DNA of 64,000 nucleotides from Vezdaea acicularis (Eukaryota): the NCBI GenBank assembly GCA_026025075.1, contig JAPEUI010000038.1:1-64000 (forward strand), given 5' to 3'. A program made the position numbers and the translations under genes. Of the stretch, positions 3,078 to 52,384 are shown in pieces; within the stretch, counting starts at the first letter, position 1; each line of letters starts with the position of its first letter. Below the pieces are notes generated by a model. It was not told the DNA's origin. It worked only from the letters and a program-made list of their open reading frames with translations, and searched no databases.

Positions 3078-4028
3078 CTACAACTCCCCCGACCCCCCCG
3101 AACTACCCGCCAACAACCCAAACTCTCCCCACCCGCGCTCCCGCCTATTGCCCGACACCGCGAGTAGCCCCTCACACCACTCCTCACTCGCTTTCCTCCT
3201 ACAAAACTTATTCCAATCCTCCTCCTTCTTCCTCCGTCTCTCATACGCGCTTCCCCCCACCACCATCTCCGCCCCATCACACGTCCTCTCCCCAGCCGCA
3301 CACGTCTTCCACCCCCCCCCTCCTCCTCCTCCTTCTCCTCCACCAACCGACCCGTCTTTATTAACAAACAAATACCCCTCCCCCCCCGGCCCCTGACTCC
3401 CCTCCCCCGGCCTCTGCGCCACCCCCGCCAGCCGACTCACCTCCACCGCCCGCTTCAACCACTCCGGATCCCACCCCAGCGGTAGTTCACACGTGCAGAG
3501 ACTCCTACAGGCCTTCCTCACCTTCGCGTCCTCGTAGAGCAGTGGATCGCCGTAGGGCGCGCCGGTCACCAGCCCGGCGAAGGGACGCGGGGCGGGGATG
3601 ACGACGCACACGCCGCCGACGTTGGAGGTGGGGTCGCCGCCCCAGTGCGCGGCGGCGCAGAGACGTTCGATGGTGGGGTATGTGCCGAGGAGACGCCCGT
3701 TGTGCAGCCGCCGGGATGTGAAGGAGGGGTCGGTCGGCGAGGAGACCAGGCCGGGACAGTCGGGGCCCCATTCGTAGCCGGCGGAGGAGGCGATGGAGGC
3801 GGAGATTGGGTCGAGAGGGGAGGATGAGGAGAGGGAGTCTCGGGAGGAGGAGCGGGAGAGAGAGCCGTAGGAGGAGGAGCGGGAGAGGCCGAGGAGGTTC
3901 GACATTATGCCCGAGCCGGTGACGGGGGTGGCGAGGGAGAGTCTTGGGGGGAGGAGGAGGAGGAGGGTGGAGAGGAGGGAAAGGAGGGAGAGCGTGAGAG
4001 GGAGGGTGTGCGTTTGAGATGAGAACAT
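3078..4028 (-). CDS. Secreted Cys-pattern protein (family member 1)
   Basis: ATG at 4028 gives MFSSQTHTLPLTLSLLSLLSTLLLLLPPRLSLATP (signal-peptide-like), a Ser-rich linker, then DCPG...YPTIERLCAA...NVGGVC...CRSLCTC and a Gly-rich tail. Confidence 0.7.
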   Translation of the reverse strand: MFSSQTHTLPLTLSLLSLLSTLLLLLPPRLSLATPVTGSGIMSNLLGLSRSSSYGSLSRSSSRDSLSSSSPLDPISASIASSAGYEWGPDCPGLVSSPTDPSFTSRRLHNGRLLGTYPTIERLCAAAHWGGDPTSNVGGVCVVIPAPRPFAGLVTGAPYGDPLLYEDAKVRKACRSLCTCELPLGWDPEWLKRAVEVSRLAGVAQRPGEGSQGPGGEGYLFVNKDGSVGGGEGGGGGGGWKTCAAGERTCDGAEMVVGGSAYERRRKKEEDWNKFCRRKASEEWCEGLLAVSGNRRERGWGEFGLLAGSSGGSGEL

Positions 4029-4564
4029 GCTGGAGAAAGAGATAGGATGTGAGAGATGAAACGACGAGATCGACGTAGAACCACGGAACAGCTCACGCAG
4101 CAACCGTGGACAAGAAAAATAAATGAGATCCGGAGAGAGAGCTCCATCCATAGCTATATCGCTACCAACGGACGCTTCTGTCGAAATGCCGCATATATGT
4201 TCCAGGGGCCGCGCAGTTGGCGTGACACCCCTTCCCCGGCGTATGCGCCATTTGTCTCGCTCGCCCAGTAAAAACCGTCCCGTCTAACGATCGTTGATCG
4301 TGATCGCTGATCGTGCTAGATTAGGTAATCGTCGGTGCGTCCTGTTCAATTGTTGTGGTTGTGGTCCATGCTCCGGAATGATGACAAGCACGTCTAATTC
4401 GCCAATTTCATCCGAAGAAAAAAACCCCCCCACCCCCATATATACACCGCCAACGCAATAACACCCAGTGAATACGCCCGCTAGTCGCACACGTAACCAG
4501 TCCTCCTTTCCATACGCTAAGAAAACCCCCCCAAAAACAAAGCGAGACGCGGCATACCTTTTTT

Positions 4565-5920
4565 TCAAGGACTCATGCCGAATTCATGCTTGACGTAGAC
4601 GCCGGTGCCGCGGAAGAGGTCGTCGTCGCTGTCCCTGCGATCGCTGGCGGAGGCATCGGGGCTCTTCCACAGGCCGGACGAGCCGGTGGACGAGACGGCC
4701 GTGATGGCCTGGCCGCTGCGCTGGTTGGCGTAGACGGGGGGAGGTTGACTCAGCGAGGACTTTATTGTCGGTTTACTAAACGCGCTGGTGCCTTTACTGC
4801 GGCGGCTGGAGGTGTAGCCAGAGAATCCAGGCGCGCCGCCGCTGCCGTAGTAAGAGGAGGTCTCGTTCTTGGTGAAGAAGGAGCGGAAGGAGGTCAGGTT
4901 GCAGACGGTCAGGGCGACGGAGAGCTCGATGGAGGTCCACAGGCCGAGCCAGATGGGCTGCGGCAGCTTGGTCTTGCTGTTCAGCACGACGATGCGGACG
5001 ACGCAGATGATCACGATGAGGAAGCCGGAGCAGAGGACGGCAAGGAGGGCGAGCTTCTTCTTAGGCGGGATCTGCACGTTGCGGAGGAGGTGGATGGGCA
5101 CCGCGATGACTGGTAGGAGACGGGATGGTTAGTGAAGACATCAGATGCACTCGGTCCTTTAACGGGGGAAAACATACTGAGTAGGTCGGTGATGATGTCC
5201 ATGGCGGTACTGAAGCGCAGGCTGACCAATGCGCGAAATATGCTCAGGCTGTCTTCACACTGGCCTGACGAAGCCGTCAGCATAAAATGATATCGGGCCA
5301 GGAATCAACTGATACTGACCGTATTCAAACTTGTGGCAATATATGGGGGATGTGATGCAACTCGCGATATAGGCCAGGATCGTGAAACCCAAGACCGACC
5401 ACCACAAGATCTCATGCCTCCTCTCGCGCCCACTCAGCCGATGAAAAAACAAAAGAAAGGAGACCTTGATGGACCAAAGCGCCGTCCAGAAGAGCAGGGA
5501 GATGGCGAGTTGGAGCTTGTAGTACCGCGAGATCTCCACGAGCGCGTGTTGCGTGAACGGGGCGTTGCCTTGTTGGACGTCAAGCAGATGCACGATGATG
5601 TTCAGATTGACGGCATCGCAGGCGGCGAGCGCAAAGCAGAGGATCAGGGCGAACATGGCGAAGTAGTCATCGAGGTAGAATGTCTTGAACTTTTTGAGCC
5701 GGACGAATAGCCGTAGTATCAGCGCGATGAAGGCTATGGCTGTCAAGGGCCAAGTGACTCCCTAGAAAACTGTAAGCGCACAAACACAGGTAACAGCGTG
5801 CGAGCAAGTGCTTGAGGAGAATATGCTTGCACGTACCAGAACCAACTTCTTTGATATGGCGGGACTGTTTTCGATGTACACCGGGGTACTGCGCTCCACC
5901 AACATGCTGGATATATCCAT
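4565..5920 (-). CDS. PTH11-like / fungal 'rhodopsin-domain' integral membrane protein (no CFEM), 4 exons
   Basis: Spliced exons ~5920-5837, 5761-5320, 5264-5178 and 5109-4565 with GT..AG ends. Motifs LRLFVR..LDDYF, WSIKVSFLLFFHRL, DIITDLL..PI, KKKLAL, WTSIELSVALTVCNL are typical of this family. Confidence 0.88.
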
Positions 5921-7230
5921 CGTCGGAAGCTCGGACCATACGCGATGGGCGAGATAGAAGTAGGGTATGTGCGAACGGACTTCTCCCTCCAAGCTCGGGG
6001 TTTCTGAAGCGCTTGCTCTATGCAATTGCTGGGTTGGAAGTACAGGACGAGTGAACGGACTCTCCCATCAAGCTCAATCTTCCGCCGCGCAACGAGACTG
6101 CGACAAACCAGGGTGTACACGAAAAAGAACGATATTCTTCAAACTTAATCCACGAACGCGGGGGTGGGTGGGCCGCCCACGGACATAAGTAAGGTCCAAG
6201 GCACGAGAAGAGAATCATGGCGAAGAAGCGCCATGCAGCAGGACTTGTGGGGCAGAAAAAGACGGCAAGAAAGGCAGACGGCGGGCGGACTAGCAACGAA
6301 CGGAACGGGAAGAAATGCGGACGAGGAGAGAGAGGGAGATGTTCTGACGCCACTGCGCTGCGGGGGCCGCTACAGTAGCGTTCCGAACGTTCAAGGGGAT
6401 GATTGTGGCCGATATGGGAGGAGATATGCCGTCTCTCGACATGCTGAGGATCGAGGGCCAGGTCGAGGCTGATACAGCTCTGCGAAGGAGTGGTGGTCAT
6501 TATCCTCAACTCTCCCCCGTCCGCTCTCAGAGCGTACGTCCTATACACTCTTGCAACAACTCTGCAACTGCTCAAACTCACAATCGCATGCATGATCGGC
6601 GTCCTGAAAAGGCGCGGAGAAAACTCGAGTTCTCAAGCCTTGGCGTCGACGGACCCGCCTTTAGCCCTGACGCCAGACCAGCCACGCGCGGCACGTCCGA
6701 AAACGTGGGGAGGAGCAGGGAAGTTTGTGTGGGTGACTGGCCCGTGCGTCCCGTCATGAAATGGAACGCTGGTGCTGGCGATGATGTGAATCGCGCCCGT
6801 GCAGGCGCATGCAGGCGCATACAGTCGCATAGCCACGCGCAAACATTTCCTCGTCGATAGGAGCTGTCTGAATGCCCGAACCAGGCACATGGACGGAGCA
6901 CACAGCAGGCACCAGCCAGGAACGCTCGCGTGGAGGGTTGTGAGATGCCTTCGTTCCCCGCTCCTCGCCGAATAAAACACCAATGGCGTCAAAGAAGCGG
7001 CGCCTCCGAGGGGCGAGAAAAGCGGCAGAGCAATCGAGCCTAAGAGTGCGTAGGTCGGATGTCCGTCAACACGGCTGAAGAAAAGGCTCGCAAAAATCAC
7101 GCCCAATCGCAGCCAAAGCACAAGAGTTATTGGCCGAGTGGAGACGCCGATCAAGGGACGCGGCACGCGATCGATGAAGTCGATTCCTGCACGAAACGTC
7201 CCATGGCGCCATGCCCCCGAAGCGGAAAAG

Positions 7231-7231
<1 letters not shown>

Positions 7232-7273
<42 letters not shown>

Positions 7274-7274
7274 A
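7232..7274 (+). repeat. (CA)n microsatellite
   Basis: A run of about 16 AC units followed by degenerate gcacacgcaca. Confidence 0.95.
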
Positions 7275-8005
7275 TCAGAAAGAAAAACTCGAGGGTCGAG
7301 GTTGTCCTTGTTTCCGTCCCAGGCACACCAATGAGCTGTTCGAGACGGCAGAGACGGCTGCCGGGTGAAACGCGGCGGGAACGCACCCGCACGGCTGGCG
7401 AGAGAAGAAGAAGAAAAGCGTGGCGATCTCGCTCCTCTAGACATGATCTCAACCACGACGCAGAACCCGAGCTCTCCGGCGTGTGTAACACCATTCGGAG
7501 CAGAAAGTGCTGCATGGAGGAGAAACGCGTTCGGTATGAAATACTTGAGTTTCGAGGGCGCGTCAGCCTTGCCCGAGGATACCCATATAGTGGACCGTGC
7601 GCCCGCCACAGGAGAAAGCTCGAGGTACAAGCCCTTGGTCGAACTGCGGGTCGCGAGTTGCAAATCGTCAATGGTGTATTGTGAACGGCAGAAGACGAAC
7701 GGCAGACTGCGTTGGTTGACCAAGCTGAGTCGACGAACCGTTCTGGATAAATGCGACGAGGCTGTGATCAAGGTCTCTCCTCATGCTGCCCTCAGCGGGG
7801 AACAAGGCCCGATGGATAAACTCAGAGCACGTGTTCCGGGAAAGGATAAAACCTCCGACCAAGGCAAGTTATCCCAGCCGCCGCATCGATGGCTTTCGGG
7901 CTTCTGCATCTACAGCTTCCGCGGCAGTTCACATCTCAAAAAGAGGTAGAGGAAGCAACACGAATCTGTTCCCAAACTCCGCTATGAAATGCTCGTTCGC
8001 TCGCT

Positions 8006-9848
8006 TTATTCGACGACTTTGCCCCCCTCAACGATGATCTGCTCGTTGATCCGTTGCTCCGTCTCGCCCTCCTCGCCGTATTCCACCCGCTTGTACGTGA
8101 CGATGCGTGCCTCGTTCGTGTCGATGTCGAAGAAGCGGACCTTGCGGTGGTAGCCCCCATACCCGCCGTAGCCCCCGAATCCAGAGCCACCCGCGTAGCA
8201 CATCCAGAGCTTCGGGCTCTCGGCCTCGTCCTTGGCGAGCGAGCAGTATTCGTTCACGTGATCACTAGCTCGAGTTAGTTCTGATCTTTGAGGCGATGGT
8301 TGAAGGGAACTTACTGGCCACAGCTCACGAAGAGCACCCCTTCCTCAATGAGAGCGTCCATGAACCCAGAGTTGAACCCTGGCGCGGTGGGGATCTCCCT
8401 CCACATCGTCTTGTCCCATGCCGGCACGAACACGGTGTTGTCTCGGTTTCTGTACTCGGGCAACGGGATGTGTATGAATGCAAGGTCCATGTGGATGTGT
8501 GCGTATTCGCTGTGGTCCTGCTTGGCATTCTGCGCCGTCTCGTGGAACCAGTCAATCTGCGACTTTTTGATCCAGTCATAACCTCGGAATCGATGTTCAT
8601 CAGGCGAATACCCGTGCGTATCGAGGAGATATAGGGTGAGCGCAGAATGGTGGGAGTTGCCTCGCCCCATGACCTCCACAACGTAATTCCCCACACCGTC
8701 CACTTCAGGGGGACCTATTTCTGAAAGAGAATAGGGCAGCGATGCAGTAAGTGACATGAGGCCGATACGATCGAGGGAGCCTTCGTCGTCATGATTGCCC
8801 AATATGCTTGCGTATGGTATCTTGCGGCTGATGAAAAGTTCCGCGAATTTGAAGACCGCCTGAGGATAGTCAGCCTGGCTCACGGGCGCCAAAGGGATAG
8901 CCTACACTTTGGGCGTCTGGAGCACTCTCTCCATTCACTTGGTCACCGCCCAAGATGACTAGATCAGGCTTCTCTTGGTCCAGCAGCTTCCCAACAAACT
9001 CCAGAGTTCGTGAGTCTGCATCACAGTTGCCTCCATTGTGCCCAACCGGTAATGCGTCTCTACAGATACCTAGGCCTGTACTAAGATGCATATCGGAAAC
9101 CTGCATAATCTTGAATCTCCCACTCTTGTTGATCCGAGGAACAGGTTTATCAGTCTTCACCGGCGGGCCTTTCCGCACGCTCAATCGCGCCTCTTGCGTT
9201 TCACCAGAAGAGTCCAGCAGCAGCGGCGTGTCCTTGATCTCCCATCCGAATCTTGGTTCGACCGCATCTGCTCCGAATAGAACATCTACTGCAGTGACGG
9301 CTTGATTCGAGTCGCTCGCGTGCCTTTTGGCGCTTCGCTTGAGCCATATTCCCCCGTTCCTTGCTTCCCATTGTTGGTCACCCTCTCCCTTTTCCGAGTT
9401 CGTAGGATCCAAGCGGCTGATGCGTACGTCTACAATGACCCGGTCGTCCGCGGCCAAGTCTTCCTCCTTCTTGCTTTGTATATGCACGTAAGCACTAGAG
9501 AACCAGCCATTGTTCAAATACAAATCTTTCTCGATACGGTGCCAGACACTTGGGTCCAGCTCACAACTGCTGAGTAGAGACAACGAAGAACACGTGGTGA
9601 CTGTGATGTCTATGATTACAAGACCAGCATTATGTGCGGGAAGATAATGATGTATAGCTTGAGGAAGGACTCGATACCGGTTGTCGAGGAAAAAGACGAG
9701 GATAAGGGCGACTGTGGTGAAAGCGGCAAGTTGAACACCAGCGCGGACCTAAGAAAACACATCATAAGTCACTCCTATCATAGATATTTTTCAAGGCTTG
9801 ACGCATGGGCAAAATCAAAGGCAAACCACTCACTATACGCCTTGTCAT
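8006..9848 (-). CDS. DCR2: Calcineurin-like metallophosphoesterase, DCR2-like, with N-terminal membrane anchor
   Basis: A 15-nt first coding exon (MTRRI|gtgagt) splices to VRAGVQLAAFTTVALILVFFLDNRYRVLP. Metallophos motifs FKIMQVSDMH, GGDQVNG, GNHD, FIHIPLPEY, SCGHDH(V)N (split by an intron) and CYAGGSGFGGYG are present. Confidence 0.9.
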
Positions 9849-10381
9849 GGTAATCCTCATCGACAGTGTAGGTTTGCTTGTGTGTCAGTCGGTCATGATT
9901 CAGGGACTGCCTTGGAGACGAATCGATGGTTCAGTAGATGTATGCGACTTGAGCATTCACATCGTAGACCAGATATCTTGGGTACAGCGCTTCTTATCGA
10001 CCCCTCGTGTGAAAGCTTCTCAAGAATAACCTTCTGAGAGGGGTTCGTTGACAATGTTCGACTCCGCGTCCTCAAAAAAAAAAGCTACATCTTGACCCTG
10101 CCAGCGTTGGTGTCCTGCACGCCGGTATAGACTAGGCTCGCCTATCCTAGGCCGAGTGGAGAGCCGACGCTTGACCAAATCGAGCGAGTCGCAAGAGTTG
10201 CAGGCGCGGGATTGGCGGGGAAGTTAGAGCGAGACAACTCCGCATGCTTCATAGGAATCTCAGCGTGCGCAACTTCTCCGAGAGAGACATTCATTCTTAC
10301 CCCAGGCATCCGCGGACCATCTGTTTGGCCTTGCTCCACTCCTCTTCTAATCCTTTTGTAAATGTCGCTGGGTATCTCAAC

Positions 10382-12287
10382 ATGTCCTCGTCGGTGAAAA
10401 GAGCTTGCGATGCCTGTCATCGCCGGAAAGTCAAATGCGATGGCCGCAGTCCGTGTCGCAACTGTCGACAAGCGTCGCTCACCTGTACGTTTGACGCAGT
10501 TCCCCAGAAAAAAGGCCCAAAAGGAAGCAGAGCGAAAGTGATATCGGAGCTCCGAGAGACTCAACGACAGACCAACCTTGCACTAAAGCTTCAACGACAA
10601 TATCTTAGCTTCGACAATCTTTCGGGCCCGTCCCAATCACCAAACCCAGCATTCGGCCTGCTTACGCCCGAGATCATTCACGGCTGTATCGACTTTTTCT
10701 TCGAGAACATGTACCCGACGATGCCAATACTGCACCGAGAGAGGCTAGAAGAACATGTTCAGGCAATGGACGTTTCCGCCGAGAGCTATTGTCTGATCTC
10801 ATCGCTCTGCGCATTCATGATCATTCAGCCTGGAATAACGATACCTCCCAACTTGCTCGAATATACGGACGCCCCTGTCTCTAATCTGGACATGGGAACA
10901 GCTCTAGTGGAAGAGACATTGAGGGTTCGGAGAAGTTATGATTACATCGAAATGCCCACAACGAAAGCAGTCATAACGTCATTCTTCCTCTTTGCATGTT
11001 ACTTTGGCCTCAACAAGCACAACACGGCTTGGTTCCATCTTAGAGAAGCCACGACCCTTTCGCAGATCCTTGGCATGCAGGATGAAAACACCTATGTGAG
11101 CGAGGACCTTATTGAGAGCTCCAGGAAGAGACGACTGTTTTGGCTGCTCTTTGTGACTGAGAGGTAGGTTTTTCACGCACTAAAGCGTATACTTATACTT
11201 ACGTAAGTGCACAGAGCCTACGCATTACAACGACACCGCCCACTTACGTTGCACTCCACCATCGCCCTTCCGACAGTGACAGAGGATCCAAGTGAGACAA
11301 TCGCGATCTCTGGTTTCCTTCATCTCGTTGACCTCTTCCGACCATTCGACGACATTTTCGTAGGACTATGGAACAAAGCCCGTTCTGATTGTTCTACTAC
11401 ATGGCTGGCTCATTTACAGAAGCAGCTTTCTGACGCACTGCCTGCCCAGCTGAGCAGCACGGAAAGCCAAGCGGCTGATCTCAGGATCTCTCAGCAATGG
11501 CTTCGAACCATGGTTTGGCAACTGTCGATGAGCAACGGCTTCCTCTCGTCAGCGTCGGCAGATAGCTCGATGAAGTTCAAGTACCCTTTAGAGATTGCCC
11601 GAGATCTGGTTGCTCTTACAGGGCAACTTTCTCAACAGTCCATGGAGGTGCATGGTATTGGCCTGGTGAGTCTATACAATCTAACCCTGACCCCACCTCT
11701 TTTCGTCATCTTTCTAGAGTTTGCTAACGCGTCAATAGATCTGGAAAATCTTCGACATCGCGTGTACTCTGACGGACGTCATGTCTTGTGTTCCCTTGGA
11801 CAACAACACCTTCGAGTTCGGGCCACGGGATTACCTGGACCGATGTTTGAATCTAGTCTCGACCCTACGAGGCGGAGACTCTCGGTATCTTCCTCTTCTG
11901 CTTGAGAAAATTAACAACACCTTGCCAGCCATGGCGGCGCCGTTACCAGCGCCACTACCACTTGACTACGTCGACGGCCGAGTGGAGGAAGTATACGATG
12001 GCCTAGTAGAAGAGATATATGACGGCTCCACCACCGACCACTCGAGCATACTAGAGAACCAGTCAAGCTTCCTAGGCAGTCCCGCACTGCATAGTTCTGT
12101 CACCGACCACTCGAGCATTCTGGGGAGCCCGCCGATACCGCCTGCCTCCACAGAAGGTTACACAAGCTTTGCACCCGTCACACCAAACCCGCTAATGCTA
12201 CCGAATCTGCCGCAGTTCTCGGAGAATCACGCAATTCCCCTACAGTATGGGTATCCTTCCAGGACACACTTTAGCGTGGATGCGTAG
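10382..12287 (+). CDS. Zn(II)2Cys6 transcription factor, COL-26/BglR/AmyR-type sugar-utilisation regulator, 3 exons
   Basis: KRACDACHRRKVKCDG..PCRNC......C binuclear cluster followed by PQKKGPKGSRAKVISELRE. Fungal TF middle domain (AWFHLREA, RRLFWLLFVTER|AYAL). Introns at ~11164-11213 and ~11666-11739. Confidence 0.9.
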
Positions 12288-17521: not shown

Positions 17522-18205
17522 TTATTTGCCGAGGCCGAAAGCAGAAGACTGGAAATATGCAACGCCGGCTGCGCGTGTGAGTGCAGCCGAATTAAATCTG
17601 CGCCCCGGTGGAGGCCCGTTTCTTGGTGTTTTGGGTAACAGCGGCGGTCTCCCGCGTGCTGGCCCTTTCCTCCTTGGCTTCGAGACTAACGGCTGGAGCG
17701 CGATGAATGTATTCCTCAACGGTATACCTGGCACATGCTTTAAACACCTGCATCGTAACTGACATAAGATGAAAAATCCCCCCTCTTCTTCGCCTTGGCC
17801 GTATAAAGCTGGGTGTGCCTAAACCATCATGTTTAGCTCTCACGCAGGTTAGAGAATGTTTGGCTGGATTACCAGATTCTTATAGCAATCGACATCATAA
17901 TTCAACCCGGGCTGTTCACAGAGACATCCAGCGTTGGCTCCCGTGTTTCCATACGCGGAGCACACGTCCCAAAGCGTCTGATACTCCTTGGGTGACCGTC
18001 CCAAGCTCGCAGGCCAAGCTTCGGTTGGTATTGGTCCTGGTGCGCAAATGATGGCATCCTGTTCGAACCGGCGTTCCAGCGTCGATATGGATGCGTTATA
18101 TGCAGATGCAATATGGCCGGATGCCGGGATAGAGAGTACGACGCTTGGTTGAGATAGGAAAAAGAAAAGGCAACAAAGATAGAAGTAGGAGACAGGCCGT
18201 GACAT
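17522..18205 (-). CDS. Small secreted Cys-rich protein (family member 2), 2 exons
   Basis: ATG at 18205: MSRPVSYFYLCCLFFFLSQPSVVLS (signal), LERR (Kex2-like site), IICAPGP...YQTLWDVCS..GNTGANAGCLC...DC. A 54-nt intron 17872-17819 (gtaatc..gctaaac..ttag) joins in frame to AHPALYG...LCQLRCRCLKH and a basic Pro-rich tail. Confidence 0.75.
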
Positions 18206-23137: not shown

Positions 23138-23271
23138 TACCCTGCACATCGTAGAGACTCTTTCACATCAGGATTTTAATTAACTAGTTTGGTCTCATAA
23201 GTCGTGCATAGGTGACCGGACCGACGTCGGCGACGCCTTGAAAAACGAGTCGACCTCTGAAGAGATCCGGT

Positions 23272-34203: not shown

Positions 34204-35266
34204 TTAAGCACCTTCGTCATCATCTCCGACACGAAGAGTGCCCTCACGCTTGCCGAAGCCGTGAACCCAAACGCCATCTAGATGGAGATTTCTGCGACAT
34301 GTTAGCTATATTCTAGCGAAGAATGCAAGGTGAACCTACGTCGTTGGGAGGTAGGCGTGAGTGACGAGAAGCCAGAGTCCAAATACAGGCTTGGCAAGCA
34401 CGTCCAAGACAGCATAGCTCAAAACCTCGGCGTCTACGCTCACTTTGCGTGAGCCATCGCTAATACCCCAGACAATTGGGTAGATCGTCCAGATGATTAG
34501 AGTGAATCCTGCGATTGAGCCGAAGAACGCGGCACTCTTCGTATCCTTGCTCGTTACCACACGGCGGCCATTGACGGCAAGCTGATAGATGATCACGAGA
34601 TAGGCAAGGCAGGCAATGGCGTAGTAACCCCATTTCTGACCACCTTCCCGGCCAAATGCTGCGAAGAGGCCAGTAAGAATCATGACAAGGTCGGCAACGA
34701 TAGCAATGAGGATATCTGCTCCACTGAGTCCAGCTAGGAGAGCCAGATCTAGAAGCAAGAGCGGAGTAGTGACACTCCAGTCGATGTATCGAGCCCAGAA
34801 GACTTGTCGATAGACATCCTTGTAGGTATCTTGGTGCTTATGCTTAACGGTCACTGTGGTCTTGGAATAGGAGATCCCATCACCGGTTGCCATGGCAAAG
34901 TAAGAAATCGTGGCAAAGAGCGTGATAAACGTTGTCAAGATGTGGAAGAGGCGATTTTTCTGAGAATCGATGAGAATCGGTCAGAGGTACACGGAAGGTT
35001 ATCACTTACAGTTGGGACCCGATAACCAAGGACAGAAAAGATAATGGTAGCAATAAGCATAATTACAAACACCACCCTAAAAAGTGCACCATTAGCAGAA
35101 GGCTACACGGATGCTTAAAACTGGAAGAAACATACCATAGTGTCTGCTTGCCTGCAGAACCTATCTTCTCATACTCGGGGTAGTTCGGCGTCATTGTGGG
35201 AAGAGGAAAATGACTCGTTGAACTTGACGTGGTTGGGAGTAGGGTAGTCTTCAGGTTCTCGAGCAT
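34204..35266 (-). CDS. Fungal microbial (type I) rhodopsin, Leptosphaeria-rhodopsin-like proton-pump type
   Basis: Four exons. Helix C WARYIDWSVTTPLLLLDL and helix G YAVLDVLAKPVFG retain the retinal lysine. The last exon is NLHLDGVWVHGFGKREGTLRVGDDDEGA*. Confidence 0.93.
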
Positions 35267-37079: not shown

Positions 37080-37437
37080 TGTGGTCGACTCCCTGTTGTT
37101 TGCGAAGGTTGGTGATTTTCTGATTTCTCGGGCTTGATCTCGGATTGGCGAGTCCGGAAACGAAGACAATCTAGCGGAACTCGATGATTCTACAAAATGC
37201 AAGAGAGAAAAAGATGTAATTAAAAACCTGCTCCTGCTTGGGTATATTATGTCTCTAGCAATTTTTAGTGTATTTTTCAACCTGCATACAAATTCTCGAG
37301 GCTGGCTTCGAAGAAGTATGAGCCGATGCAAAATGCCTACGTCGTGGTTGCGTCGTTTCTTTCCATAAAATAATCGAACGCCAGGTCGTTCTATCTACAC
37401 GGCAACAAGATACGATTCCATCAACACAGCGTTAAAT

Positions 37438-40321: not shown

Positions 40322-40965
40322 TGCGAACATATCTTTGAGGGCGAGACGAGCGTTGGGAGTATGGTCTTATGGCTCGTGTTAGTACCTGATACGGAGGACA
40401 CTACTTCCACATCTGCTCATGGAATCTGACACTGCGTCGTTGAACAAGTACACGGGTTCACACTCCTGAACTCTATTTCTGGGGCGTATAAAAGGCGCTG
40501 GGTAGGCGTTGGGACCACTCAGCATACAACAGAAGCTGTGCTCTAGACTTCGCGCGCGAGTAACACAGACGCGTTGAAATCAATGGAAAGGGTTCACAGG
40601 GCGCTCTCGCGTTATGTATGGAGCAATCTGCGGGCCGTCACAAAAGTGGAGTTTTGGGTGATGGATTTTCATGGGTTTTATGGTTTGCACATAGGTTGCT
40701 CTATATGTAGCAGTAGTATAGGACTATCACATAGGCTGCTGGTGCAGCTGTGCAGAATCTATAGACCGTGCTGATAAACTCTTTACTTTGTCGGATAGAG
40801 AGTTCCAGCTTGCCTGCCAGCTTGGAGAATCTGGTGGCTTCTGTTGACTTGAAGTGAAACCGAGCTTCGTCCACTCACTTCAAGAAGGTGTGTTCGATGG
40901 CGTCGATACCGCAGGCGGCAACGTTTGCATCTTGCAGTAGATGCGCCGACCTTCGTCTACTCACT

Positions 40966-42968
40966 CTATGAAAGTGTGTTCGAAGGCATGGACACTGCAG
41001 GCGGCGACGTTTGCATCTCTTGCGGTAGATGCGTCATAGGCAGCTCCTCATGGCCGATTGGTGCTTTCCGAAACGCAATCGCCCCCCCATTTTCTTCCAG
41101 TGGTAGAGGACGGGGCAATTCCGCAAGACCTACAGGCTGATTGCCGTTGATATTTGTCGTCTTGCCCTCCTCGCTTCCTTCCGGTGTAAGCTGCTGAACG
41201 GCCTTTACTCCATTTTCGCCGTTGACTTTCGGGCCCTTCTTTACCTTCAATTGAACCACTAGACTCCTATGCTGCGGTCGGTCGTCCTCACTCATCATGT
41301 CTTCGTCATCGTCCTCGTCCATTTCCTCGACACTATCTCCCTTCCCGTCGTCCTCGTCCTCGTAATCGCCAGCGTAGTCCTCGGCATCTCCACCGCTGGA
41401 TGCAGCGTCTGATTCCTCGTCCATCTCATCGACGGAGTTATAGGTCTCGATGTGGTCTTCTCCCTTCGCCCACCCGTTGACTTCCTTCCGCGAGGCAGAG
41501 CGCCGAGGCCGACCGTTGGTGAGTAGCTCGTCTTCCGGCCCATCAACTCCCGCTTCAGTCTCTGCAGAAGGCGCAACAGTTCCAGAGCCGCGTGCACCAG
41601 TGACAGTCTCACCGTACATACCACCAACCCTGCTCCTTACTTGCCGCCCGCTTGCCGTGAAAGTCGGCCCTGCATCCTCCTGCGGGGTGACAACTCCAGA
41701 GCCTCGGGTTGACCTCCTTGTACTTGGTGCTTCAGAATCATCCTCATCAGAGTATGTATACTTCATACGCTTGCCTCTGGTTCGCCCCTCATACAGACTA
41801 AAGCCCAGCTCCGGCCGTGTGAAGCGAGCCCGTTGAGCAAGCCTATATTCTCGCCTCTTTCTCTTCTCGTCCGTTGCCTCGAAACGTGGTATCGCACTGT
41901 AGATGCTATGAGCCAACCTTCTCCCGGCCTGTCCACCCTCGGTCTCTAATTGAACAGCTGTAGCCTTCATCTCATCGATAGTTCCAGCAACACTCCACCA
42001 CGTGTTCTTTGCGCGCGCTGGATTGGACTCGCGGTATAGCCGGAACGATGTGTCATCCTGACCCTCGATTAGCCAGTACCGTCGCTTCTCACTGTCACGG
42101 CCCCAGGGCTGCACGCTGAGCGGCTGGTTGAGGTCGTCATCGTGTCGAGACTGTTTGTAGGCGTCCTTAATCTTCACCTGGACAGCTTCTGATGAATGGA
42201 GAGACCACAGGACGAGCGTCTTTAGTAGCGTGAGTCTTTCTGTTGGTGACATTGTGTGGAAAGAACGCCCGCCATTGATTGGGTTTGTACCATTCCAGGC
42301 TCTCGGCCATTGTGATTTATGAGTTGAGATAGCTTCTTCAAGAGCTCTTGTATATTGCCCCCTTCTGTTTTGAAATGGTCTATTAGCTTCTAATGCTTGA
42401 ATTGATTGTGTTTGCTTCTCAATTGCCGTCATGGAAATGTTTTAGCGATTGGGCGAGGTTATGTTGAACTTACTCTACGTTCTTCTTCCGGTTTAGCACT
42501 AGCCCTAACAAAGCACACAAGTAATTTTCTACTTGCTCTCCTGGCACAGTATCCACGACTCCTCTTTCAATATCTTGTGGGCCATAGTGCATTAATGATT
42601 TTGGGAATACCTCGCTGAAGCGAGAGCGAAACATAACGAGAAACTGATGCATACGCGAACTCGTTAGCCAATGACTTCAAAAGCAGCCTCACGCGCAGTG
42701 AGCGCGAACGAATCATCTCTGGACGTGAGATTTGACCTGGAATACGTACGGCAATGTCGGGATTGTCTGCTAGGACATATTCGTGCGGTGGTGAAGGCTC
42801 ACGCTTTCTTGAGGGCGGAGGACTTGAGCTTGGCTGTTTCTTGAGCTTGGCTTTGCCAGCCGAAGGTGTGAAAAAGTTGCGGATGTCGTCCTTTTTTGAG
42901 AAATCTGGTGGACTTTCATCATCGGTCAATGGAGCTGAAGATAGTCCAGAACTATCTGAATGAGACAT
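40966..42968 (-). CDS. WHIM1/DDT-like chromatin-associated protein
   Basis: PPHEYVLADNPDIA|FLVMFRSRF, LLGLVLNRKK, ERLTLLKTLVLWSL, PWGRDSEKRRYWLIEG, SLYEGRTRGKRMKY, acidic tail. Three exons. Confidence 0.82.
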
Positions 42969-43563: not shown

Positions 43564-44508
43564 ATGGGTAGAGTTATCCGCAATCAGAGGAAGGGTCGTG
43601 GATCAATCTTCAGTAAGTCTTTAATAGCTCTCAGCAACACCGAGAACGGTCCGTCTTGAATACCACTAAGTGCTGCTGCAGCGGCCCATACTCGTCTCAA
43701 CAAAGCTCCTGCGAAGTTTCGGACACTCGATTATGCTGAACGACATGGCTATATTCGAGGGGTGGTAAAAGAGATCATACACGACCCTGGCCGTGGAGCA
43801 CCACTCGCAAGAATTGTTTTTCGGGACCCTTATCGATTTAAACTACGTACTGAGACTTTTATTGCCAATGAAGGCATGTATACTGGCCAATTCATCTATG
43901 CCGGCAAGAATGCGACTCTCAACGTCGGAAATGTACTTCCATTAGGTGTTGTGCCTGAAGGTACCGTCATATCGAACGTTGAGGAGAAGGCTGGTGATCG
44001 AGGTGCATTGGGAAGGACATCTGGCAACTACGTTACAGTTGTTGGCCATAACCCAGATGAGGGTGTCACAAGAGTCAAGCTACCGAGTGGCGCAAAGAAG
44101 GTCATCAAGAGCACAGCTAGGGGTATGATCGGCATTGTAGCAGGAGGTGGTCGGACTGATAAGCCGCTTCTTAGTACGTTTACCTGTATCGTGGTCAACT
44201 GTTTTGACGTAAATGCTAATGACATTCGCAGAGGCATCTCGTGCGAAGCATAAGTTTGCTGTCAAGCGTAATTCGTGGCCCAAGACTCGTGGTGTTGCTA
44301 TGAACCCTGTCGACCATGTAAGTACCTTGAATTATTACCACAGCTGTAGCTTCGCTGACAATACAAATAGCCTCACGGAGGTGGTAACCATCAACATATC
44401 GGTAAAGCCTCGACAATATCACGCTACGCCGCTCAAGGACAAAAAGCTGGTCTCATTGCTGCTCGGAGAACAGGTCTACTCCGCGGTACTCAAAAGACTA
44501 AGGATTAG
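43564..44508 (+). CDS. RPL2: 60S ribosomal protein uL2 (L2/L8)
   Basis: [16 protein letters not shown]|..[55 protein letters not shown]. There is also a probable 5'-UTR intron 43441-43557. Confidence 0.98.
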
Positions 44509-44719
44509 GGGTAACTGGCGCGTAGCAAGTGAGGAATGCATCGAGGAAGAATGCATGGTATATGTATTACGGGTGGGCTGCAGCCTACGGGCTTCGAATA
44601 AGGACTAGGACAACCGTACCAGATCCTTTTAAGTGCCAAAAGACTTGATGCATAATTTGTGCAAGACAACATCGTCATCTGAATGGGTATCATTGTCAAG
44701 CGCCGAAAGACAATACTCT

Positions 44720-45717
44720 TTATCTTGAGCTAAATCCACCCTTCCCCCTTCCGCGGCCAAATCGAATGCTTGGTGGCACGAACTTTAGAGCTGACATAGA
44801 GGAAGCTAAATCTGACATGTCCTCGTCCTTAATTTCAGGCTTTGCTGGTGACTTGCTCATTGAACTGGTTACAGTAGTCGAGTCCCCCAAAGATTTATCC
44901 CCCTTTATGTCAGGAGTTTCCCCAGTATTTGCGTCCATTACATCTGGCTTGTCCCCTTCTTCACCCTTTATGGCCTCCTTTATCCCGCTCATGGATTCAA
45001 TGGTGGTGGCCGGTGAGACGAGTGAACTTCGCTGCCTAGCCCGCTCTGCAGCAGAGCTCTTCCTCCTATGTCCTTGTCTCGATCTGAGCATTGTCCTCCT
45101 CTTATCTATGCCGTCATTTACAACGAAGAAATCATATTCCTATACATGTCATATTAATCAGTAGAGCTCAAGAGTGATGAGCATGAAAATAAGCTTACTC
45201 TAGGAAACATGTGTTTATCGATCAGGTGTCTTCTGCGTTTCTCAGGAGCAGAGCACACCCTATCACAGTCTTCGACGAAGCATCGATACTACGCTCGCAG
45301 GTCAGCTGAGAATTTCTGTCTTGTCTCCGCAGTACGTACAATTTTCTCCCCTTTGGCCTTTCGCGCTTCGTTTAGTGGGTCATGGTTCTCTTCTATGTGA
45401 AGCTCTAGAAAATGAGCCGTGGGAAAGTTGTTGCGGCATTCTGAACATCGATTTACGTGGAACTGTGCATAGTGTACCTCAAAAGCGTCATACGAACTAA
45501 AATGTATGGCCTCTCGGTGCGGAGGAAGTGCACATTGCATTACTTCGATCTCCTTGTTGCTCTGCGAAACTTCTAAGTGCTTGTACTTTCTCAAAGGAGC
45601 AGATGCTTCTTCTACATCTGCTCGGGACTCAGCTTCTGGTGAGGATACCGCGTAAGGGGGCGAAGAAGCTGTATCCGCCGAAGATGAGACGGAGTCTTCT
45701 CGTGAGCGCTTGACCAT
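44720..45717 (-). CDS. C2H2 zinc-finger protein, ZNF511-like
   Basis: MVKRSRED start, CALPPH..YEVHY-type motif, CSECRNNFPT.HFLELHIEENHDP, a spliced CFVEDCDRVCSAPEKRRRHLIDKH exon, and the C-terminal LKFVPPSIRFGRG. Confidence 0.82.
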
Positions 45718-46502
45718 TTTTGAGGTGATGACGAGAGCTTTACTTGTTGTGTGCAGTTTTCCCTCTCGCAAAACATCCAAACTAGTGACTTGAAGTATCC
45801 GGGAGTAATTGATTCAGAGCTCTCTTGAATAAGATAAGACGATCAATTTGGATAAATGAAATAGACCGTCTGGAGTTTTTAGAGAAAACCCGAGGTGATC
45901 GAGTTGAAGGGCATAAATTTGCTATTTGGATTGGCCTTCGTACGAGCAACGTCCGGAGCAGGAATTATGGATTGATACGCATATCAAAATTTCTCTAGGG
46001 TTTTGCCAACATAGCCCTTTCGTTTCTCCTCCTTCAGACGTCGGAGCTGTCACCGACGCCAGTAGAAGCTTCGGGTTTGAGCGAATCAGAACCTCCAATG
46101 CGGGTCGGGCCAATGCATTGACGGGCCCGGAGAACCAATACGCTAAACCTAAAAAGTGATAATCTGGAACACTTTAGGCGAGAACTTATTGAAAAGAGAT
46201 GTCTTTGCGCCGGGCTTCAAGAAGAAGTCTATTGTACAATTTCTGACTGTATTACGCTATTGTCTTCATCAGCCCCCCTTAATGTGTTTCATGATCGTTG
46301 CTGAGTCTCAAACTTTTGTAGCTCACTCCCACTGGCCTCACTGGACTCTTCCTCTTCCTCCCGCTCTCAACAACCCCCGCATCACCTCCCCTCATCCATG
46401 GAGCGCGCCAGGATAACACATCCTCTAACCCGCAATACCTTTATCTGACCACAAGGCTGACCGTGGTGTCGCCAATGAGACCTTTCTGGAAATCCAAGAG
46501 CT

Positions 46503-49246
46503 ATGGCTTCGCAAGCTGAGGGCTTCTGGCAGTATGTACCTACCTGCCGAATTGCGTTTCAATTCGAGAACTTCTAGTTGATGCCCCGAGTAGAGTTACT
46601 CAACAACTGGAACTTGAAGTTCTTGCTAGAGCATTAGATACCAACTACCCCACCCAGAATATCCTAGAGGATCTACATCAGTATGACTATCAGTCTGCTG
46701 GTCGATGGTTCCGAGCTGACTATTCAAAGACTCCGCTTGGCCTGTGAAAATCTGCTTTTCGCTGATTTCGACTTCGGCACGTCTAAGAATATTGGAGACA
46801 GGCTCTGGGAGGTTCACGGGAAAGTTAAGAGCCGATTTCGCAAAGCTCATCAGAAGGTCAGTGATGCATGGACCTTCGGTTAAGTGGTTCTCGCACTGAT
46901 AGATCCAGCTTCGCATCGGTAACAATGTCGTCCTTCGGAAATCTCTCAAATTATTCCTTGACTTCATCAAAGATTCTCAGCGCTTCTATAGAGGTTACAT
47001 TCAGCGTCTGAACTCACATTTTGGCGGTATACCAGAGCTTGAGACAGTTGCCGCTAGATTCAAGTTTGATAGTGGGTGAACATTCTCCTGCTTGAGGCTC
47101 AATAATGACAGCTTCTTAGACATTAGCAAACCTAAGGCCGTCGTATCGAGTCCGCAGACGCAGCATGCCATACTCCTTTCTTGTCACCACGCATTGATTT
47201 GTCTTGGTGATTTATCTCGTTGGCGGGAAACAGAGAATGTCTCTAAAGAGCGTAATTGGGGACCGGCCATTGGATATTACGACCTTGCTGGTGCAATTTA
47301 TCCGGCCTCAGGAGCGTCTCATAATCAGCTTGCTGTCATTGCTTTAGTCGAAGGCAACCACCTTCATGCCACGTATCACCTTTACCGTGCCCTCGCCGTG
47401 GACGAACCTTATCCTCTCGCCGGCGAGAATCTAGGAGTCGAGTTCAAGAAGATTAGCGTCGCTTGGAGTAAAGGAGAGCTGATACCACGGAGCCGAAACG
47501 CACAGGAAAACGCGGCCAACTCGTTGCTCGCATGGTTTGTGAGGCTTCATGCTCGCTGCTTCAAAGGTGACGAGTTCTCCGAACGCGATGAGCTAGAGAA
47601 TGAGGTGTTGAGTCGGCTGGCTACGGAAGTAAAAGAACGAGCTCTCAATGCTGTTCTCCATAAATTTGTCTTGATCAATACTGCAGCTCAGTATTATGCG
47701 GGTGTGCGACTACAACGTGAGTATTGCTGCCTAGCCTTCGATCGATGCCCGCTAATCGTCATATCAGAGGAACCAGAGAATCAGACTAATTTCAGCTCCT
47801 TCTTCTATTATGTTCGCTTGAATGTCAAGACCTTCCTCACACTCCTCCAGGTCCTCCAACCTGAGCTTGAGCGCTACTTGGCGTCTGAAGCGAGCCTAGA
47901 GAAAGATGATCCCCCCTTCGAAAGAATATCGGCCGTAACACGCCGAATTCTTCCAGCACTTCGGCACTATAGCTCATGGCTATTGTGTCATTCTGACGCC
48001 CTGCTTAGCCAACATGGAGATAATGCCTTGCATGTACAGATTAAGGGATTGTGGAGAGCCTACGCTAACTCGTTGACGTTACTGGCCGCGACCTTCCCTG
48101 TTTCAGATTTACCTGTCGTTCATTACCTTCTAGAGGAAGATGATGATACACTTGGCTTCAAACCCTTCTGCGATGCTGAGTACCGAGAAGCTAGTCAACG
48201 TCGTTATTATGTCGGAGGACGAGTGAAGCCCAGGTTTCATGACCCTGGGGTTGAGAGAAACCACCCCAATACCGAGATGATGTCAAGAATTCGGGACTTC
48301 TTGGCGGACGGTCTGGAGTTAGTTGTTGGCCAGGTAGGTTGAAGTTAAATGACTAGGCCATCAAGCGTTTGCTTACATCCTCTAGCATATTCCCATCGAG
48401 CTAGCCGATGGCGGCACGTTCATCTACCAAGAACCGGATATACCTTCAGAGCTCCTGGCGCGGCCTCTTACAAGCAGCACCAATCCTTCTCTAGCCGGCG
48501 ACTTGGGCCCCAAATCCCAGACGAACGGCGCAGTTTTGCACACCCCAGCCATTGATAGAGCCAGCAATATTGCCCGCTCGAGCAAGCTCTCAGCTTCCGC
48601 CAGCGAGTTCGTGCACACACCGAGGACGTCTGCCCCCCACTCGCCCTCCCCAATGGCTTCCTCTACCCACCCGCGACAACCGACAGGACCTCCGCTTCTC
48701 TTCGGTCAAGGACCAGTCTATCCCCCACTCGCTCCCCAATCATCCAATCCCACAGAAGCTGTCGAGTCGACTTCAATATCCGATGAAATGACAAAGATGG
48801 TATCCAACCTCGTGGACGACGACGACGCCAACGACTTCAGCACCACCAACTCGCCTAGTCTACGCGGCAGCACCGATTTCGCGAGCGTCGGAAAGCGCAC
48901 CCCCACTCTCACTCCTGGAGGCCAGTTTGGGGAGCCGCCGGATCAGGTGGCGCTTAAGGGCGGACGAGCCTTGCCGAGCGTGCTGGGCACGGCCTTCACA
49001 CCTGTGGTCCGACAGCAACAGCAACAGCGGAGTGTCAGCTCGCCCATGCTCGCTTCTGCAGGAACGAACAGCAGCCCTAGCCGGTTTGGAGATCCGAGTA
49101 CATCCTTCTTCGCTAACTCCACGGACAGCGCGAAAGGGCAGACACGGGGAATGTCCGGTGCTCTCGAGCATACGAGGATGTACTCTGGGGGAGATGAGTT
49201 TGGGGGGTGGACGTCGCTAGGGGACCAGGGCGGCTGGAAGGGTTGA
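46503..49246 (+). CDS. Est1/Ebs1/SMG7-like TPR (14-3-3-like) protein
   Basis: Spliced from MASQAEGFW|. Motifs RFYRGYIQRL, LICLGDLSRWRE, YYDLAGAIYPASGASHNQLAVIA, YHLYRAL of the EST1 DNA/RNA-binding domain; low-complexity tail. Confidence 0.85.
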
Positions 49247-49562
49247 AGACCTTCCCCCCACCCCCCAAAACAAGATTCTCACGACCGACAAACATCCACC
49301 AAGAGTAGTTGACGAAACTATGACTCAGTCGAAATCCGCACTAGTTGATGAGCGCGCAGGCTAGAAAAGGACTTTTTCGGCATTCTCGAGCGATGCTACT
49401 CTATGCTAACCCGCCGTCCCAACGCCGCTCTATCAGGTTCTGATATCCCATGCATCGTCGGCTTTTATGCGCGCCCTCTGCTGCTGTCGTTGTTGTTGAA
49501 AACAGTTCAGTCCGTCCACCGCCTAGCGCCACGCCATGCACACGATCCTCATCAAGTCGTTT

Positions 49563-51155
49563 CTAAGACGGGGCTGCCTGGGGATGGTAGGTCTTCTTAG
49601 GGAATGGGTAGCTAGTGAGAAAAGGGTGTCAGCTATCTGTGCGCTCAACAGAGTTTGCGTTACCGAAGAGGGGAGAAGTGATGGAAGATGCCTAGAGGGG
49701 AGAGGGGTGCTAAATTGCGAGATTTCCCTTTCCTCTTCCTCTTCCTCTCTCCCTTTAATTTTTCCCTTTCCCGATATTTCCGACGATTTTCTCTTTTCTT
49801 TTAGACTGGCATCGTGCATAAGCTCTCCAAAGAGACTCGTCCACCACAACGAGAAGGGGTAGTTGACGCCGAGCAAGCGTTGCCAATAGCACACTTCGAT
49901 AACGAACGAATGGATAAATGAATGAACGAACGAACGAAATTCCAAGCCGTACCTTGGACCCAATTCGCGAATGCTGAGACTCGCAAGCCAATGCCCCATA
50001 TCGACGCACACATCCAGCGGCTTTCCCTCGACCACCCCGGCCATGAAACCGCCCGCGAACGCGTCCCCAGCTCCATTCGTATCGTTGATCTCACTCGCGC
50101 TAATCTCCCGCACCTTGTAGCTCTTGACGCTGTCCTCGCCCTGCACCGCCACGAGCGTCGGCTGCGTGCCTTGGGTGATGATGGCCACCCTCTTGCGCGC
50201 CGTGTTCTTCTTGGGGAGGTTCGCTAGGTGCTTCGTTATGGCTGAGATGTCCTTGGTGTCAAGGGAGTGCGATTCGGCGTACGAGAGGGCTTCGGTCTCG
50301 TTGCCGATGATGTAGTCCCAGTAGGGTGCTGTCTCGTCAAGTTGGGACTTGAAGAACTGCGGTATGAAGGGGGCGGAGAGGGAAAGGGCGAAGATCTGTT
50401 CGGAAGGACTTGGTTAGTCTGGCAGGGGATACAATTTTCTGAGAAGGGGGACGCGCCTTGTTCTCCTTCGACGCCTCCTCTGCCAACGCCAGGATTGCAG
50501 GCACGCATACGGTCAAATGGTATCCCCCGACAAAATATACCTTTGCCGCCTTGACCAGCCGCCAAATCTTGTCGCTCTTCAAATGTGACTCCTTGTAGAG
50601 ATTCGCCGCCGCTAGATCTGTGCACATACTCCGTTCCTGACCCGTGATCACGACCCCACACCTCCCTGTCGGGACTTCTGCATCTTCCAGATACTCAACG
50701 TGTAGTCCCGCGTCATCACATGCCTTATGTAAGATATCAGCGTATTTGTCCTTACCGACGCAGCCGATGAAGAGGGTGGAGTGAGGTGGGAGAATGTATT
50801 GGGCCCCGCGGGCGGTGTTCTGGGCTGCTCCGCCTGCAATCAACTTTGCGGAGTAGTTGGTGAGTAGGTCCTCGTAGATGGGCTTGTGCTTGTCCTCGGC
50901 GAGAATAGCGTCATTGGCTTTGAGGCCATATTTTTGGAGAAGAGCTTCGTTTCTGGGAACGGAGTGTCAGTTAGAGAGGGCATAGTGAGAGGGGTTGAGT
51001 GGTAAGGGCGGGGTGAGCGTAAGCTTACCCTTGGGCTTGGATGTCTGTGGGAGGCGTTTGTTAGCCATTGATCGATATGGAGAGTTGGGACGTAGATACA
51101 AACCTAGCAGCGGGTTCTCTAAGCAGAGGAGAGCGTATCCTTGGGTTGAAGTCAT
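49563..51155 (-). CDS. ADO1: Adenosine kinase (PfkB family), 5 exons
   Basis: LLCLENPLL|DIQ, AGGAAQNTARGAQY, PTGRCGV, LSLSAPFIPQFF, IGNETEA, DTNGAGDAFAGGF, and the last exon (S)YPFPKKTYHPQAAPS*. Confidence 0.96.
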
Positions 51156-51712
51156 GGCGAGACAATGTTGTGGTCGGGATGTTAAAGATTGGATGATGAT
51201 GGTGGGGTTGAAGATTGGGGTCTGATATAATTTAGCCGAGATCGGACATCATTGCTTACGGTCCCTGCGATATGATACGGCCGAGTGTACCACCTCAATT
51301 CACGAAAATGAGGCAGGACGTTAAGCACGTAAAGGAAGGATAGCAGTTGTACGAGCGGTGTTGCGTTCTGTCCTATCCTATTCTGGTGCTAGCTAAGCAT
51401 GCAGTATGGTCCTTGACCATGCGACGAGGAGTCCTATACCATGAGCGTTCTACCCGGTTCGCTCTTCAAAGATACGGTAAAACAATGAGAGGATGTGAAG
51501 GCTTATACAGAGGATCTTGAGTATGTGGGGGGGCTATGGTCCCTGGACCTGCTACAATAATACGTAGTACCTCCGACGAGGCTATGTGCCGATAGCTTCA
51601 ATCCCTACTCAGCAAGAGGGAGCAGGAACGAGAACCACCCAGCTCTTGACTGAAGTGCGTCTCCCGCGCTATGATTCCCTCATATTCGATTAACCATTTT
51701 CCGGGGTACCAT

Positions 51713-52384
51713 TCACAAACCCCCATCAACTCGTTCACTCCTCCCCGACGCCCGTCCCACATCAAACCACCCCCTTCCTGCAGAACCGTCCTCCAACCTG
51801 CACTTCCTCTGCCTCGACCCAGCACCACAGCTACCAGCCTCCCTTTGCCTCGTATTCACTCTCGGCCCCGTCCTATCCCACCCTCCCTTCATCCCCTCCA
51901 TCAACTCCTTACTCCTACTCTCCGCCAACCTAACACCCACCAGCGCCAGCGCCTTCCACTGCTCGAAACACATACAGTGTTCCAAACAGTACTCCTGAAC
52001 CTGTTCCACGAGCTGCGCCTCCGCCAAATAGGTACCATACGGAACCGGACCCATCTGCACCTCCGACCCCATCTGCGCAAAATGCTCCAGCGTGGACCTC
52101 GCCCTCGTCTTCAGCGCCACCACCGCCTTGCCATCCGCCGCACACTTGAGGTTGAAAAGCTGATCGAAGCCGCATAGCTCGCTAAGTGAGTGAAAGACAA
52201 TCTCGGGCACGTACAGCAGCCGTCCGGAACCGCGGAAGGAGTGCGTCGAGGCCCACGCCGAGGGGACCTCGCCGAAGCAGATGATGTCCTTGTCTGTGAC
52301 TGCGACTACGCCGCCGATCCGGCTGACCGCGATCCAGAAGACCAGGACCATCACCAGCGGCGAAGGAGGAGGGAAACTGCGCAT
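51713..52384 (-). CDS. Secreted Cys-pattern protein (family member 3)
   Basis: ATG at 52384: MRSFPPPSPLVMVLVFWIAVSRIGGVVA (signal-like), DIICFGEVPSAW...FHSLSELCG....NLKC...YCLEHCMC. A TATAAA lies about 90 bp upstream on the minus strand. Confidence 0.68.
   Translation of the reverse strand: MRSFPPPSPLVMVLVFWIAVSRIGGVVAVTDKDIICFGEVPSAWASTHSFRGSGRLLYVPEIVFHSLSELCGFDQLFNLKCAADGKAVVALKTRARSTLEHFAQMGSEVQMGPVPYGTYLAEAQLVEQVQEYCLEHCMCFEQWKALALVGVRLAESRSKELMEGMKGGWDRTGPRVNTRQREAGSCGAGSRQRKCRLEDGSAGRGWFDVGRASGRSERVDGGL

Follow-up and report, generated by a model that had tools for sequence, protein, structure and literature searches.

One cysteine core in many divergent copies: a candidate effector-like protein family of Vezdaea acicularis and other lichen-forming fungi

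Several effector families of plant-associated fungi, among them MAX, LARS, FOLD and RALPH, consist of many divergent paralogues built on one disulfide scaffold (passages of PMC12018790). KP6-like proteins (UmV-KP6 alpha/beta and Zt-KP6-1), as described in part of PMC12382754, are small secreted alpha/beta domains of 80-90 amino acids (aa), held by disulfides, diverse in sequence and sometimes present twice in one precursor. The K2PP effectors are secreted precursors processed by Kex2, whose motifs are KR, RR and LxxR (passages of PMC8528282). Expanded secreted families are also found in a lichen fungus: Xanthoria parietina is reported to have 205 unannotated secreted proteins, six unannotated structural clusters and KP4-like clusters (passages of bioRxiv 10.1101/2024.08.16.608140). 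The fungi of the genus Vezdaea are lichenised or live in association with algae, and one species penetrates its alga by haustoria (passages of PMC13616976). A stretch of 64,000 nucleotides of Vezdaea acicularis (contig JAPEUI010000038.1, positions 1 to 64,000), here called the window, contains three genes, g1 (3078..4028), g2 (17522..18205) and g3 (51713..52384), all on the minus strand. Judging from profile comparisons, their products share one cysteine core and belong to a real family, apparently undescribed. By analogy, it may work as do the expanded families of effectors in plant-associated fungi.

The three genes rank first to third among the 929 open reading frames (ORFs) of the window under two different profiles of the core. 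The first profile, built without g3 from 21 paralogue cores lying outside the window, gives 53.0, 43.4 and 12.2 bits for g1, g2 and g3; the shuffle maxima are 6.9, 10.2 and 6.9, and none of 1000 shuffles of each reaches the real score. The second, built from 294 cores of other database proteins, gives 35.2, 32.0 and 16.2 bits (E 1e-9, 2.5e-5 and 8e-4; shuffle maxima 10.2, 8.3 and 10.9 bits), with a slight residual circularity because these proteins were selected by a profile containing g3. Note that g1 and g2 were the queries that found the paralogues, so that their profile scores are partly circular as well. As single queries against the genome, g2 exon 1 finds six paralogues and the g1 core 12, while g3 finds none. 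The motif C-x3-C-x-C by itself proves nothing, since the six-frame translation of the window contains it nine times. Core-to-core identity among the three proteins is 15-21% in pairwise comparison. g3 has a profile-profile probability of 14% with only the terminal motif aligned and no supported position in a tree of 128 cores, and it is best regarded as a weak, marginal member on this alignment evidence.

An earlier note on this window had proposed the three ORFs, each with a hydrophobic N-terminus, a g2 intron, and a common order of cysteine motifs matching no named domain. The ORFs and their N-termini are as described, and the predicted intron at 17872-17819 is favoured by its GT..AG ends, by the frame that its removal restores into C-x3-C-x-C, and by the rise of the g2 score from 30.6 bits unspliced to 43.4 bits spliced. 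The ordered motifs are present in all three, but the third cysteine of g3 (in NLKC) is out of register in the alignment. No Pfam family matches the core in the window proteins or in 28 family members. A structure conserved across g1, g2 and g3 is suggested by the alignment; the fold was modelled for the g1 core.

The core is about 85 aa long. Its skeleton in 276 cores is I-x-C1-x-G-x-L-P, a Pro-rich loop, Y-x-S/T-L-x-x-L-C2-A, often Y-G-G, N-x-G-G-Y-C3, V-x-F and R-L-x-x-Y-C4-x3-C5-x-C6, and each of the six cysteines is kept in 89-99% of these cores. In the six-cysteine type, the next cysteine after G-x-C follows about 30 residues on. An eight-cysteine subtype, which includes g2, has cysteines in place of the second G and of the F. 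Both optional cysteines are present in 35 of the 36 cores (out of 276) that have either, and no other two positions are coupled as strongly in a set of 354 cores (z 11); these cysteines appear to have been gained together as a pair. Among the same 354 cores, C3 is lost together with C6 in two and C1 together with C5 in one, leaving C2-C4 as the third pair. The disulfides are thus probably C1-C5, C2-C4 and C3-C6, with an optional bond across a hairpin. The AlphaFold2 model of the g1 core, made with 60 sequences, has a pLDDT of 88.7 and a pTM of 0.79. In this model, DSSP assigns a hairpin (53-58/64-68), otherwise single bridges, and helices at 15-18, 34-38, 76-79 and 82-91; the optional cysteine pair would sit on the hairpin. 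The best-conserved polar residues of the core are an Asn (61%) and a Gln (55%) in the 294-core profile. That no polar residue exceeds 61% argues against an enzyme.

The core lacks features of several known scaffolds. In KP6, two helices lie over an antiparallel sheet of four strands, whereas the g1 model has a two-stranded hairpin and single bridges. The KP6 bonds connect beta1 to H2 and H1 to beta3 (described in part of PMC12382754), whereas the strand past the hairpin turn carries no conserved cysteine in the six-cysteine type. The putative C1-C5 bond resembles the KP6 beta1-H2 bond, and C2 seems to be paired with C4 on the last helix, as judged from co-loss and not from coordinates. No Kex2 site is found between the tandem cores of this family, which is another difference from KP6. 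MAX, LARS, FOLD and RALPH proteins differ in secondary structure and cysteine spacing (passages of PMC12018790), and the present family occurs in mutualists, dispersed in ordinary gene-rich DNA. LARS was rejected specifically, since its WR(F/L/V)(R/K) motif is not in the profile of 276 cores and its sheet has three or four strands versus two in the model. FOLD, whose N-domain has one helix and five strands and is followed by a beta-sandwich (same source, in part), was rejected too, because the model combines two strands with several helices. AFP, BP and NFAP2 were rejected because the gamma-core is lacking and the precursors have 209-660 aa versus less than about 150 aa (passages of PMC13525654). 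Hydrophobin and CFEM have no Pfam match here, and KP4/Hce2 (PF09044, PF14856) has none in the window proteins or 28 family members.

Many longer members of the family continue with a second core, a knottin-like module of six cysteines and, after a basic site, a tail of four cysteines with the pattern C-x-C-N-x-S/T-Y-x4-C-C-x5-G-x2-W-E. The second core, the knottin-like module, the Kex2-type site and the tail are all absent from g1, g2 and g3. In the own genome, a core lies upstream of 31 of 35 inspected tails and a degenerate core upstream of two more. The spacing C-x3-C-x5-C-xn-C-x-C-xn-C is found in 71 of 88 database proteins (55 of these 71 with C-x3-C-x5-C) and, as a strict pattern, at 15 of 35 own loci. 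It is like the knottin spacing of Avr9, cyclotides and albumin-I, but the module has no Pfam or PDB sequence match. Ahead of the tail, 79 of the 88 proteins have LxxR, KR or RR (shuffle mean 42, maximum 54), and cleavage is predicted there, as in K2PP precursors. The enriched site differs from that of K2PP in lying near the C-terminus before the four-cysteine tail, not after an N-terminal pro-domain; g2 has an RR immediately ahead of its core. The N-terminus is hydrophobic in 110 of the best 150 of 286 database members, compared with 5 and 7 of 147 internal control windows. The Calogaya member P0047 ends in an unrelated segment and is possibly a fused gene model; this segment may resemble KP4-like proteins.

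The genome (18.95 Mb in 315 contigs) contains many copies of the family. Genome searches and a profile scan of the loci identified, on 50 contigs, 58 loci with a core and 13 that have just the terminal module. A 600-kb scan of three long contigs gave four known and five new family genes. The new genes score weakly (E 2e-5 to 0.19, the best reversed-sequence control reaching 0.16), but each begins with a Met and a hydrophobic N-terminus and has the cysteine spacing, apart from one in which the start was not seen. Three further searches added nine loci, which were entered in the total without inspection. The family total is at least 85 loci on 53 contigs. A later search for the terminal module gave 52 matches and recaptured all 43 of an earlier one. 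Since this module is nearly fully counted and three of nine sampled genes carry it, about 150 genes are expected; the plain density would give about 280, which is too high, since the scanned contigs were chosen for known matches. The family is thus estimated at 150-280 genes in this genome. The identity of 60 own cores to their nearest paralogue has a median of 37% and a maximum of 49%, and no recent duplicates are seen among them. Twelve family genes in 664 kb lie in DNA of ordinary GC (0.51 versus 0.52), and none of 415 background windows is RIP-like (repeat-induced point mutation), although repeats may be under-represented in this assembly. At C8:36617-37194, a stretch of less than 600 bases has a terminal module on each strand, which suggests convergent family genes. 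Tandem repeat arrays lie by two contig starts, C283:2769-3478 (L109) and C261:2720-3669 (L129), and the C283 array also matches itself inverted.

The very large genome-wide expansion that the earlier note anticipated from three copies is therefore real. A profile search of the genome, which it suggested, found many further paralogues, and its picture of a sequence-diverse, secreted-type family with signal-peptide-like N-termini and one cysteine skeleton is borne out. Two of its statements hold within the window only. The tails of g1-g3 are indeed unrelated, but 68 of the best 150 of 286 relatives in the database have a conserved cysteine module at the C-terminus; and the genes sit singly beside conserved genes here, but form small clusters elsewhere (contigs C283, C35, C112, C260, C209 and C280).

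In 1.84 billion proteins the family profile matches 286 representatives at E <=0.001. The best 150 were listed, of which 20 are own-genome loci at 95% or more, and 30 of the 150 were looked up for their organism. It is named for 17 of the 30 (Vezdaea aestivalis 10, Caeruleum heppii 5, Calogaya 1, Chaenotheca gracillima 1), and 13 are without a name. A search with the Calogaya member gives 56 matches. A name is attached to 24 of them, which represent 16 taxa, among these Flavoplaca, Teloschistes, Letrouitia, Physcia, Lecanora, Letharia and Cladonia. Teloschistaceae relatives of Xanthoria thus carry this family. Named homologues span the Lecanoromycetes and Vezdaea, Caeruleum and Chaenotheca. 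We take all named sources to be lichen-forming fungi with green algae, the taxonomy having been checked for four genera. The link to symbiosis raised in the earlier note gains some weight from this distribution but is still a matter of interpretation. The tree was made from 128 cores (60 own and 68 from named records), unnamed rows being left out. In it, g1 pairs with P0099 (support 0.969). Where proteins from Lecanoromycetes, Caeruleum and V. aestivalis have two cores, their second cores fall into a single clade (support 0.987), which implies that the two-core architecture is old and has been kept. Most other nodes are weak.

Each of the three window proteins has a single hydrophobic stretch, close to the N-terminus. 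g1 encodes 316 aa with one six-cysteine core and without the terminal module. Its signal-peptide-like N-terminus (about aa 1-33; 3930..4028, minus) has a hydropathy peak from aa 9-18, and its core, delimited by the family alignment (aa 87-183; 3480..3770, minus), has Cys 91, 124, 141, 174, 178 and 180. It matches P0099 of V. aestivalis (KAI9893632.1) with 50% identity over 134 aa, probably an orthologue. g2 encodes 209 aa after splicing out of a 54-nt intron. Exon 1 (17873..18205, minus) holds the signal-peptide-like N-terminus, RR at aa 45-46 and core Cys 54, 82, 94, 96 and 107; exon 2 (17522..17818, minus) holds C-x3-C-x-C (Cys 130, 134 and 136), a basic Pro-rich tail and the stop, which makes eight core cysteines instead of six. 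The intron (17819..17872, minus), predicted from the sequence and not from reads, contains branch-point-like CTAAC (17852-17848) and GCTAAAC (17837-17831). g3 encodes 223 aa, a divergent member with a signal-peptide-like N-terminus and without the terminal module; its core (aa 32-142; 51959..52291, minus), weak in profile-profile comparison, has Cys 36, 71, 81, 133, 137 and 139. A TATAAA at 52472..52477 (minus), about 90 nt upstream of the ATG at 52384, would favour this start over the in-frame ATG at 52495. The only protein-database match of g3 is P0004, a V. acicularis hypothetical protein (100% identical, 125 aa). The public gene models P0122 (g1) and P0004 (g3) both cut out C-x3-C-x-C by 17-nt introns (3505-3521 and 51959-51975). 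These introns are probably prediction artefacts, as they are implausibly short and the V. aestivalis orthologue of g1 reads through the motif, though their equal length at the same motif is odd.

g1 is flanked by a leucine-rich repeat (LRR) protein gene and a fungal rhodopsin-domain (Pth11-like) receptor gene, the latter directly upstream on the same strand (4586-5656, minus). A WD40 gene is in the vicinity of g2, and g3 is flanked by PfkB kinase and protein kinase genes. Upstream of the protein kinase gene (53038-54978) is a GC-rich region of about 5 kb (55000-60000) in which numerous ORFs overlap and no conserved gene is evident; it could be a long regulatory region. Elsewhere in the window are a bacteriorhodopsin-like fungal opsin gene (34336-34893, minus; PF01036, E 6e-33) and an 86-nt direct repeat in two copies (40860-41033) overlapping the 3' end of a WHIM1-domain gene. 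A gene with about ten TPR repeats of 42 aa (61901-63757, minus) contains a 126-nt tandem array (61968-63215, 87% matches). It resembles the sensor end of a fungal NLR-like protein, the N-terminal part of which may extend beyond the window.

The best explanation, to which we give somewhat less than even confidence, is that the family is a large multigene set of secreted, non-enzymatic, effector-like proteins of lichen-forming fungi that act on the algal partner. The precursor would enter the secretory pathway by its N-terminal signal, and disulfides would staple the core into a small scaffold. In longer members Kex2 would cut ahead of the four-cysteine tail, and g1-g3 would be core-only forms. 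Variable loops of the core may bind differing extracellular targets. These may be wall or surface proteins of the green alga at the contact or haustorium, and the many divergent copies might serve recognition or modulation across algal strains. The chief reasons for favouring an algal target over the rivals are that the family's distribution goes with the lichen habit in separate lineages and that the cores are not cationic. Several points weigh against this explanation. The restriction to lichens comes from 41 named records, 17 of them among the 30 looked up from the best 150 of 286 and 24 from the Calogaya search; unnamed metagenome matches may include other fungi, and the profile, built from this genome, favours its relatives. 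The family genes lie in gene-rich DNA of ordinary GC without RIP, unlike effectors of two-speed genomes. Dibasic sites in pro-regions are barely enriched (25 of 132; shuffle mean 15.4, maximum 25), and inter-core linkers show no enrichment (19 versus 22 in shuffles). The pairing of cysteines comes from three cases of co-loss, in one core C6 alone is missing, and the eight-cysteine pair could go back to one event in evolution. The location and activity proposed here are predictions from sequence, and the target is a guess.

Alternatively, the proteins could serve as antimicrobial weapons by which bacteria and fungi are kept away from the fungus-alga unit, like killer-toxin-like effectors of the KP4/KP6 type, with the knottin-like module as a second toxic or membrane-binding unit. 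A precursor with a Kex2-type site and knottin-like spacing would suit such a role. Zt-KP4-1 and Zt-KP6-1 do inhibit fungal growth (passages of PMC12382754), and lichen fungi are reported to encode large, fast-turning predicted antimicrobial repertoires, with one unannotated orthogroup limited to 30 green-algal mycobionts (passages of bioRxiv 10.64898/2026.09.03.749242). It is nevertheless an unlikely role. The median net charge of the cores is -1, with 12% at +3 or more; there is no gamma-core in the six-cysteine core, and the precursors are far above the AFP, BP and NFAP2 size limits (passages of PMC13525654). KP4 and KP6 folds, moreover, are spread over many lifestyles (passages of PMC12018790), unlike this family so far. 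Structural or adhesive parts of the hyphal wall or of the extracellular matrix around the algae, like hydrophobins or lectin-like glue, are a still less likely interpretation. High copy number, a secretion signal and the Pro-rich loop would agree with it, and so would a glycosylation sequon in the tail, except that the tail was defined with that sequon and its conservation is circular. However, Pfam gives no hydrophobin, CFEM or lectin family, the core lacks the adjacent Cys-Cys pair of hydrophobins, and only 6 of the best 150 of 286 members have a hydrophobic segment beyond residue 45. Nor does a structural role need at least 85 copies at less than 50% identity.

Vezdaea species are known from metal-rich soils, and the cysteine clusters C-x3-C-x-C and C-x-C could bind metal, so that the proteins would sequester metals outside the cell. 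This is very improbable: even cysteine numbers and the pairwise gain and loss fit disulfides, and the family also occurs in lichens of ordinary bark and rock. Metal is not mentioned in the searched passages of PMC13616976. Least credible of all is that the ORFs are unexpressed relics or chance look-alikes. The weak score of g3 and the public models P0122 and P0004, which end g1 and g3 ahead of C-x3-C-x-C, would point that way, but these models require the implausible 17-nt introns, in V. aestivalis the orthologue, 50% identical, continues through the motif, and long open frames with an intact cysteine skeleton are kept over 18 named taxa.

If the effector-like explanation is right, the family bears on the question of how lichen fungi recognise and control their algae. 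A comparison of six genomes gave one lichen-specific core orthogroup, small secreted proteins being mostly genus- or species-specific (passages of PMC9232553), and the Xanthoria study put forward unannotated secreted proteins as candidates (passages of bioRxiv 10.1101/2024.08.16.608140). No description of the present family was found in the literature searched; it may sit unnamed in the supplements of the latter study and of bioRxiv 10.64898/2026.09.03.749242. Orthogroup methods would split the family into pieces, and the 17-nt introns of public models cut the domain and hide members. The family is a concrete candidate, with one definable domain, at least 85 copies in a 19-Mb genome, and a profile that traces it across distant lichen lineages. 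A bolder reading, possible but doubtful, is that the core is a disulfide-stapled fold without a solved representative and belongs to an ancient effector system. This system would be shared by green-algal lichen fungi (Lecanoromycetes, Vezdaea, Caeruleum and Chaenotheca), be absent from non-lichenised fungi, act directly on the photobiont and make up 2-3% of the genes in some genomes. If true, this would provide a first molecular marker shared by lichen lineages that are classified separately.

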